From Octopus vulgaris (Eukaryota), in assembly GCA_951406725.2 (NCBI GenBank), contig OX597820.1:119722001-119786000 (forward strand): 64,000 bases of DNA, in the 5' to 3' direction. A program made the position numbers and the translations under genes. The notes under the pieces are model-generated. The model worked only from the letters and a program-made list of their open reading frames with translations, made no database searches and was not told the origin of the DNA. Shown here one piece after another: positions 26,966 through 27,384 of the stretch (position 1 is its first letter; each line of letters opens with the position of its first letter).

Positions 26966-27132
26966 TATATATATATATATATATATATATATATATATAT
27001 ATATATATATATATATATATATATATATATATATATATATATATATATATATATATATATATATATATATATATATATATATATATATATATATATATAT
27101 ATATATATATATATATATATATATATATATAT
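26966..27132. repeat. Pure (TA)n, ~165 bp
   Basis: Directly visible. Confidence 0.98.
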
Positions 27133-27138
27133 TATAGA

Positions 27139-27195
27139 AGGAGCTTCTACAGGACTAGAACTGTTTCATTCAAATGAAATCATCAGGAAGCTCCT
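27139..27195 (-). ncRNA. Type I hammerhead ribozyme motif (intact core)
   Basis: aggagcttc-CTGATGA-tttcatttgaat-GAAA-cag ttctagtc ctg-TA/gaagctcct; perfect 9-bp stem I; GUA cleavage site between 27148 and 27147. Confidence 0.8.
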
Positions 27196-27241
27196 GATGA
27201 TTTCATTTGAATGAAACAGTTCTAGTCCTGTAGAAGCTCCT
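27185..27241 (+). ncRNA. Type I hammerhead ribozyme motif (mirror copy, bulged stem I)
   Basis: CTGATGA 27194-27200, GAAA 27213-27216, GTA 27230-27232; followed by aataaa, ~75 nt, then (TA)n. Confidence 0.65.
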
Positions 27242-27384
27242 TCTATAAAATAAATTAATTTACTCTGCCATGTATTGAGTACCTTATTTACTGTGGTTAA
27301 CCCCGACTCAACCCGGGACCTACATATATATATATATATATATATATATATATATATATATATATATATATATATATATAATAT

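Follow-up and report, generated by a model that had tools for sequence, protein, structure and literature searches.

The palindrome at 27132–27248 of the window, by which we mean the whole 64-kb stretch of Octopus vulgaris DNA analysed, lies within what is almost certainly an inverted insertion of a Penelope-like element (PLE). The locus is a 5′-truncated, inverted stub with hundreds of near-identical sisters and, taken alone, it is an ordinary dead transposon stub. It belongs to a repeat family whose parent carries reverse transcriptase (RT) and GIY-YIG motifs, and whose inverted copies have two fixed outer ends, variable joins and arms of which either may be the longer. We consider it probable that reverse transcription started from both ends of a cut target, on a single capped RNA, and that the two resulting cDNAs were joined at their 3′ ends.

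The insertion and its parent element

The initial annotation had described a perfect 117-bp palindrome, with 57-bp arms and an AGC loop, beginning directly at a (TA)n tract. A direct self-complementarity check confirmed this: the segment is its own reverse complement bar the three central bases (27189–27191), and pairing ends at the very next base beyond the arms. All other inverted repeats in the 64 kb with loops of ≤30 nt are either simple repeats or have arms of ≤16 bp, and the palindrome is therefore not a chance structure. Although the palindrome had been correctly delimited, the size of the element had not, as the insertion continues through a 70-bp tail to occupy 27132–27324, with a second TA tract beyond (Table 1). 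The numbering of the end repeat, from +1, is taken from parent copies L159 and L265. The window copy is without the upstream TATA region and is promoter-less. Its centre equals the loop-less centre of other copies less one base, and the G at 27193, which directly precedes +1 on the minus strand, may have been copied from the cap or may belong to the other arm. Just past the right TA tract there is a further hairpin (27376–27435, −30.8 kcal/mol, 6-nt loop), followed by about 100 bp and then another TA tract; it may be where another element that targets (TA)n is joined head-to-head.

Table 1. Features of the insertion, in window coordinates
Feature	Position	Strand	Remarks
Left (TA)n tract, insertion target	26966–27131		Family copies also (TA)n-flanked
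Tail-less arm, end repeat bases +1 to +61	27132–27192	−	+1 is the first base of stem I, 27192
Complete hammerhead in tail-less arm	27192–27142	−	Predicted cleavage between 27148 and 27147
Head-to-head junction	27189–27193		1–2 nt overlap
Tail-side arm, bases +5 to +67	27192–27254	+	Stem I 5′ strand incomplete
Tail-side arm hammerhead, core	27194–27200	+	
Tail-side arm hammerhead, stem II	27202–27211	+	Flanked by U27201 and U27212
Tail-side arm hammerhead, GAA	27213–27215	+	
Tail-side arm hammerhead, stem III	27216–27231	+	Predicted cleavage 27232/27233
PLE tail (70 bp), +68 to +137	27255–27324	+	One side only
Right (TA)n tract	27325–27380		

When the right arm and centre were used to query the animal's own genome (2.8 Gb), 434 candidates were returned, and the 40 that were scored all matched a second time, on the other strand. 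The common unit in 30 fetched loci was the palindrome plus the 70-bp tail, lying between (TA)n tracts. Genome-wide, a 20-mer from the tail end occurs 5,646 times (≤1 mismatch), the loop-less centre 673 times and the exact centre of the window copy 317 times, and copies of this 3-nt-loop class are nearly identical to each other. The idea of a non-autonomous element, fixed at 193 bp and with a loop that flips, arose from the centre-containing query and was dropped after the tail search. The family may already stand in Repbase or Dfam.

The genome search for a non-palindromic parent, proposed in the initial annotation, did find one, in the form of ORF-bearing full copies of 4.9 kb. Long copies run upstream via simple repeats into an ORF, a piece of which, used as a query, was matched in all 150 scored of 13,876 candidates; in full copies the tail continues into a leader and then the ORF. 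Copy L265 is a complete unit of 4,919 bp, consisting of an end repeat, a 713-aa ORF, a 3′ region and a second end repeat, and the right arm and tail of the window copy are identical to its end repeat at 127 of 133 positions. The ORF (L265:772–2910, with its ATG at +184) contains the motifs YRDDG and VYTC..YIG, so that, as judged by motifs, a single ORF carries RT followed by GIY-YIG, the arrangement of an EN+ PLE. Pseudo-LTRs from partial tandems, an inverted 5′-truncated copy and a tail at one end, as known from PLEs, are all present.

A Pfam scan of the 713-aa protein itself gave no match, and a PDB profile search with it returned nothing useful. Relatives of the protein were numerous (1,118 at E ≤ 1e-10 among 8,000 scored), and of seven scanned against Pfam two matched GIY-YIG, one matched RVT_1 below the cut-off and four matched neither; P0040 (41% identical) exceeded the cut-off for GIY-YIG, and P0087 (40%) was the RVT_1 match, at E 9e-6. 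Elements of the Hydra clade are described as having RWK and DKT motifs, a CxCX5C linker, and CxxC and CxH near the end, with GxKF/Y not kept (PMC8557442). The protein here contains RWR38 (R for K), DKT116, C567-x-C-x5-C, C667xxC and C695xH, and GxKF/Y, when sought in the 713 residues, was absent, as expected for that clade. Insertion into (TA)n, a further trait of the clade, is seen in family copies. From these motifs, we classify the parent as a Hydra-clade PLE.

At 4,919 bp the unit does exceed the length of Hydra-clade elements, which are said to be ‘generally’ short, under 3 kb (PMC8557442); the excess is simple-repeat 3′ sequence. This 3′ region (L265:2910–5375) consists of ∼2.4 kb of mixed TA, TG and TATG repeats and travels with each copy; the family thereby spreads DNA of microsatellite type, its own target included. 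Inside the family insertion at L242, ∼2.8–5.5 kb upstream of the tail end, there is a different, frameshifted element with RT and GIY-YIG, which by its motifs we take to be Neptune- or Poseidon-like.

The hammerhead motif

The sequence CUGAUGA-N12-GAAA-CAG-N8-CUGUA is present on both strands of the palindrome, and the type I features of a hammerhead (CUGANGA, GAAA and an NUH core, with stems I–III) are all found. As the initial annotation had it, stem I can pair over 9 bp on the minus strand and is bulged on the plus strand, and stem II, flanked by U-U, is short (3 bp). The parent stem I is of 6 bp, starting at +1, and since the parent has different bases upstream of it, the three extra pairs and the mini-hairpin AGGA-gct-TCCT are features of the junction product, to which they are confined. 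Loop III is self-complementary, and a dimer is predicted.

The usual R-Y pair of stem II, G10.1–C11.1, is absent, with U-U in its place and at most four changes in 106 arms. The annotation had read this as a weakness of the copy; by our own count of the hammerheads in a published supplement, T flanks stem II on either side in 14 of 25 Hydra families (PMC8557442), and the U-U flank is therefore the norm of the clade and not a copy-specific weakness. Our literature search found no published account of U-U at 10.1/11.1 in hammerheads. A search for relatives with a canonical base in stem II gave 47 matches, which read as the same PLE family, with one unrelated sequence among the 20 loci viewed. 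The suggested check against Rfam did not bear the motif out: no hammerhead model matched the 64-kb window at gathering score, and none was among the 76 matches obtained for 26800–28200 at E ≤ 10. The best Rfam matches fell below gathering score in every case and were to miRNA models, of a kind that any long hairpin will satisfy.

Variation between copies was counted in 106 tail-bearing arms over +10 to +51, positions +1 to +9 being set aside because junctions disturb them. The sites at which at least 10 copies vary are N7, three bases of loop II and one base of loop III (P about 0.0015 for this distribution of the five sites). As common variants thus spare the core and stems, the fold is likely to be under selection in the parent lineage. 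There was no peak of arm ends at the predicted cleavage site, +46, near which 2 of 69 inverted arms and 0 of 97 tail arms ended.

In another class of copies (L032–L055, for example G000:C2:70444248), 20 of 25 matches have a single core and a 22-bp stem I, and join exactly at the predicted cleavage site, through microhomology or complementarity of stem I; the tail lies upstream in 17 and downstream in 3. They could mark cDNAs from cleaved RNA, and are the copies of the family most likely to fold as a ribozyme. This form was considered as the parent and rejected, being another junction class. A second, unrelated hammerhead-like core occurs in the window at 27714–27692 (−) and 45440–45418 (−), with a 4-bp stem II containing an unpaired A and a palindromic short stem III. 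Its repeat ends at (TA)n, and similar sequence lies beside L029, L035, L052 and L157; by its resemblance to published PLE hammerheads (PMC4209133), it looks like the end repeat of another PLE family. Hammerhead-like cores are also seen at 3734–3759 (+), where stem II has 5 bp and GAAA is followed by a palindromic stretch, and at 56773–56810 (+).

Junctions and the origin of the palindrome

Junctions were counted in 97 of the first 100 exact tail matches listed on contig C1, the three left out being window-class copies that had already been fetched. An inverted, tail-less arm lay close by in at least 69 of the 97, a lower bound because 7 of the 28 others had an inverted arm further upstream. 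The outer end of the inverted arm fell at +66 to +76 in 66 of the 69. The outer ends of the insertions are fixed, at +67/68 and +137, and the inner joins are variable and fall at many points. The tail-less arm was the longer in 21 of the 69 copies and the tail arm in 17, with 31 equal to within 2 nt; in 11 the tail arm stopped at +61 or later, and the arms there barely overlap or do not overlap at all. Among 13 long insertions anchored by the ORF, the tail was on the longer arm in four (L263, L264/5, L271/2 and L273), on the shorter in four (L267, L268, L274 and L278/9) and on neither in one, the other four being unresolved; in L274 the arms measure 258 bp and about 5 kb.

For 91 copies with the 3-nt loop (30 loci from the search with arm and centre, and 60 from a further 110 matches), the orientation of the loop relative to the tail was scored, giving AGC in 48, GCT in 42 and a mutant ACT in one. 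Both versions of the same centre are found within each subfamily. Where both arms carried A or T at the subfamily marker, they agreed in 79 of 80 copies (11 unscorable copies being left out), while random pairing would lead one to expect about 30% mixed. Both arms therefore came from one template or one source locus.

The innermost ends of the arms may mark the start of the RNA. Arms end at +1 in 23 of 97 cases on the tail side and in 20 of 69 on the inverted side, and there is a TATAAA at −29; loop-less centres do inflate the peak at +1, through AGCT microhomology. A G precedes +1 in 13 of 21 arms that are neither parental nor loop-less, compared with 1 of 25 parent contexts. Seven of the 13 may be templated by the other arm or by element sequence, and with these excluded, by our own sorting, 6 G remain among 11 (P = 0.006). 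At L203, L303/304 and L306/307 the G is present on both arms at once. It occurs before +1 at 980 places genome-wide; of 30 such loci read, 14 were of the 3-nt-loop class, 12 were others and none was parent-like, the remaining four belonging to two loci where both arms have the G. In full-length L1 insertions, an extra G is reported to mark capping (PMC11702581). We infer that the RNA of the element starts at +1, where the hammerhead begins.

In the scheme that we propose, the promoter of the end repeat would start the RNA at +1 and the element protein would cut (TA)n, after which one target end would prime at +137 and the other at about +68. Both cDNAs would reach the 5′ end of the RNA or near it, often copying the cap as an extra C, and would anneal by 0–4 nt of microhomology around the self-complementary AGCT, with fill-in to follow. 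In the window copy, the tail-less cDNA would have extended to +1 and the tail-side cDNA to +5/+6, and their join would leave the 3-nt loop. The usual template would be uncleaved RNA. There is a biochemical precedent in a PLE protein reported to extend both target strands from two tail-bounding sites on the RNA, and with uncleaved RNA as its main substrate (PMC11167929). Two cDNAs are favoured over a simple fold-back because either arm may be the longer, and because the arms nearly always match, stop at +1 and often carry the extra G. Against the model, the concordance of the arms is equally predicted by fold-back, unstable palindromes could have lost part of one arm after insertion, leaving the arms unequal, and the in vitro precedent is from the Poseidon clade and not from Hydra.

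The main rival is self-priming with later deletion, in which one cDNA or antisense RNA would fold back near +1 and copy itself, with unequal arms and the flipped loop put down to subsequent loss of bases at the centre. Matching arms in 79 of 80 copies are what it predicts, the window centre has one base fewer than the loop-less centre, from which either symmetric loss would give the 48:42 split of loop orientations, and self-priming on an antisense template is the published account of PLE junction palindromes (PMC3846280). Nevertheless, fold-back of a single tail-started cDNA cannot make the tail-less arm the longer one without later deletion, and it is the longer in 21 of the 69 copies, exceeding the tail arm by up to about 5 kb in long insertions. 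At three loci, moreover, both arms end at +1 with an extra G of their own, and the parent has no mini-hairpin at the join; we regard self-priming as possible but unlikely. The initial annotation had envisaged a young insertion whose cDNA folded back at a pre-existing AGGA-gct-TCCT. A young retro-insertion with a type I motif, palindromic on insertion and with a non-palindromic parent, is indeed what was found, whereas the fold-back fails, as the parent is without that hairpin and sister copies join at many other points.

It is quite improbable that the 193-bp unit is a non-autonomous, retrozyme- or MITE-like element that spreads with its palindrome intact. The 317 nearly identical copies with the same centre would fit such an element, but that centre is one of many joins and is found in both loop orientations per subfamily, the window copy has no TATA region, and the loci read contain no tandem monomer arrays of the retrozyme type.

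We give even less credence to the palindrome being a functional RNA switch, with a long dsRNA hairpin as one state and an active ribozyme as the other, the role suggested in the initial annotation. The core is intact on both strands and family variation spares core and stems; this conservation, however, belongs to the parent lineage, and no host gene is evident among the ORFs of the window. The whole palindrome is predicted to fold at −98.5 kcal/mol, against −14.5 kcal/mol for the hammerhead fold of the minus-strand motif alone (minimum fold −16.6 kcal/mol). As the antisense arm precedes the ribozyme on either strand, the hairpin would form as the second arm emerges, and switching is not expected. 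Any role of the hammerhead would lie in the parent; here it would be buried in a 57-bp hairpin, and a read-through transcript of the window copy would amount to 57 bp of dsRNA. Broken retrotransposon reading frames are present in the window at 5903–7420 (+), 37290–37940 (−) and 50915–51760, presumably of CR1/L2-like RT and restriction-like endonuclease types. Lastly, long palindromes are prone to fold-back artefacts, but an assembly or sequencing artefact is the least credible explanation of all, given that hundreds of loci have this structure, that its outer end is constant (+66 to +76) and that single arms carry private mutations.

Returning to two-ended priming, we lean slightly towards the fuller statement that a capped RNA starting at hammerhead base +1 is copied twice, from two fixed sites, by the cut (TA)n ends, with the cDNAs joined head-to-head, and, jointly with it, that the family is a thousands-fold record of the PLE insertion mechanism. 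If so, the inverted repeats and one-sided tails of PLEs would be explained without the published antisense self-priming, and a selected U-U hammerhead would lie at the cap end of an mRNA that it could decap. As the family is young and runs to thousands of copies, whose outer ends are fixed and whose junctions can be read, two-ended priming can be tested by counting, and the family also supplies a natural U-U hammerhead that is intact across subfamilies. Earlier publications already describe inverted truncated copies, one-sided tails, (TA)n targets and opposite-strand hammerheads; the junction census goes beyond them. The origin of PLE inverted repeats is named as an open question in the Hydra-clade study (PMC8557442), and our literature search, with subscription journals mostly outside its scope, found no account of them by two-ended priming.

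Relation to known elements

The family resembles the Hydra clade, including Hydra-1_Obim and Penelope-n_HM, as described by Craig et al. 2021 (PMC8557442), in its single ORF with RT and C-terminal GIY-YIG, in the RW(K/R), DKT, CxCx5C, CxxC and CxH motifs, and in its (TA)n target, T-flanked stem II, inverted 5′-truncated copy and tail at one end. When compared by eye, its protein and hammerhead differ from those of Hydra-1_Obim, which indicates a different family. The unit measures 4.9 kb, about 2.4 kb of it being the simple-repeat 3′ region, where Hydra elements are generally under 3 kb, and the tail is of 70 bp as opposed to 30–40; stem II here has 3 bp and loop III has 8 nt.

As in published PLE hammerheads (Cervera and de la Pena 2014, PMC4209133), the motif is of type I, lies in the end repeat and has a palindromic loop III that would allow dimers; unlike them, it has no G10.1–C11.1 and has a stem III of a full 4 bp. 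Opposite-strand pairs of PLE hammerheads 100–700 bp apart had already been noted in that work. The family is set apart from non-LTR retrozymes by the lack of tandem monomers and by the existence of an ORF-bearing parent of the same sequence.

With respect to mechanism, the proposed likeness to PAc, a Poseidon element of Anolis (Frangieh et al. 2024), lies in two RT start sites that bound the tail (putative here), extension of both target strands, an AT-rich target and insertion independent of cleavage (PMC11167929). PAc is of another clade, and its ORF starts inside the hammerhead and not, as here, at +184; inverted insertions are not a subject of the PAc paper (PMC11167929). The proposed events also resemble L1 twin priming, in which the second target end primes inside the RNA, as would happen here, joins are made through microhomology, and full-length 5′ ends carry an extra G (PMC11702581). 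In L1, however, the two parts barely overlap, whereas here the overlap is usually full, giving a palindrome, and both start sites are fixed.
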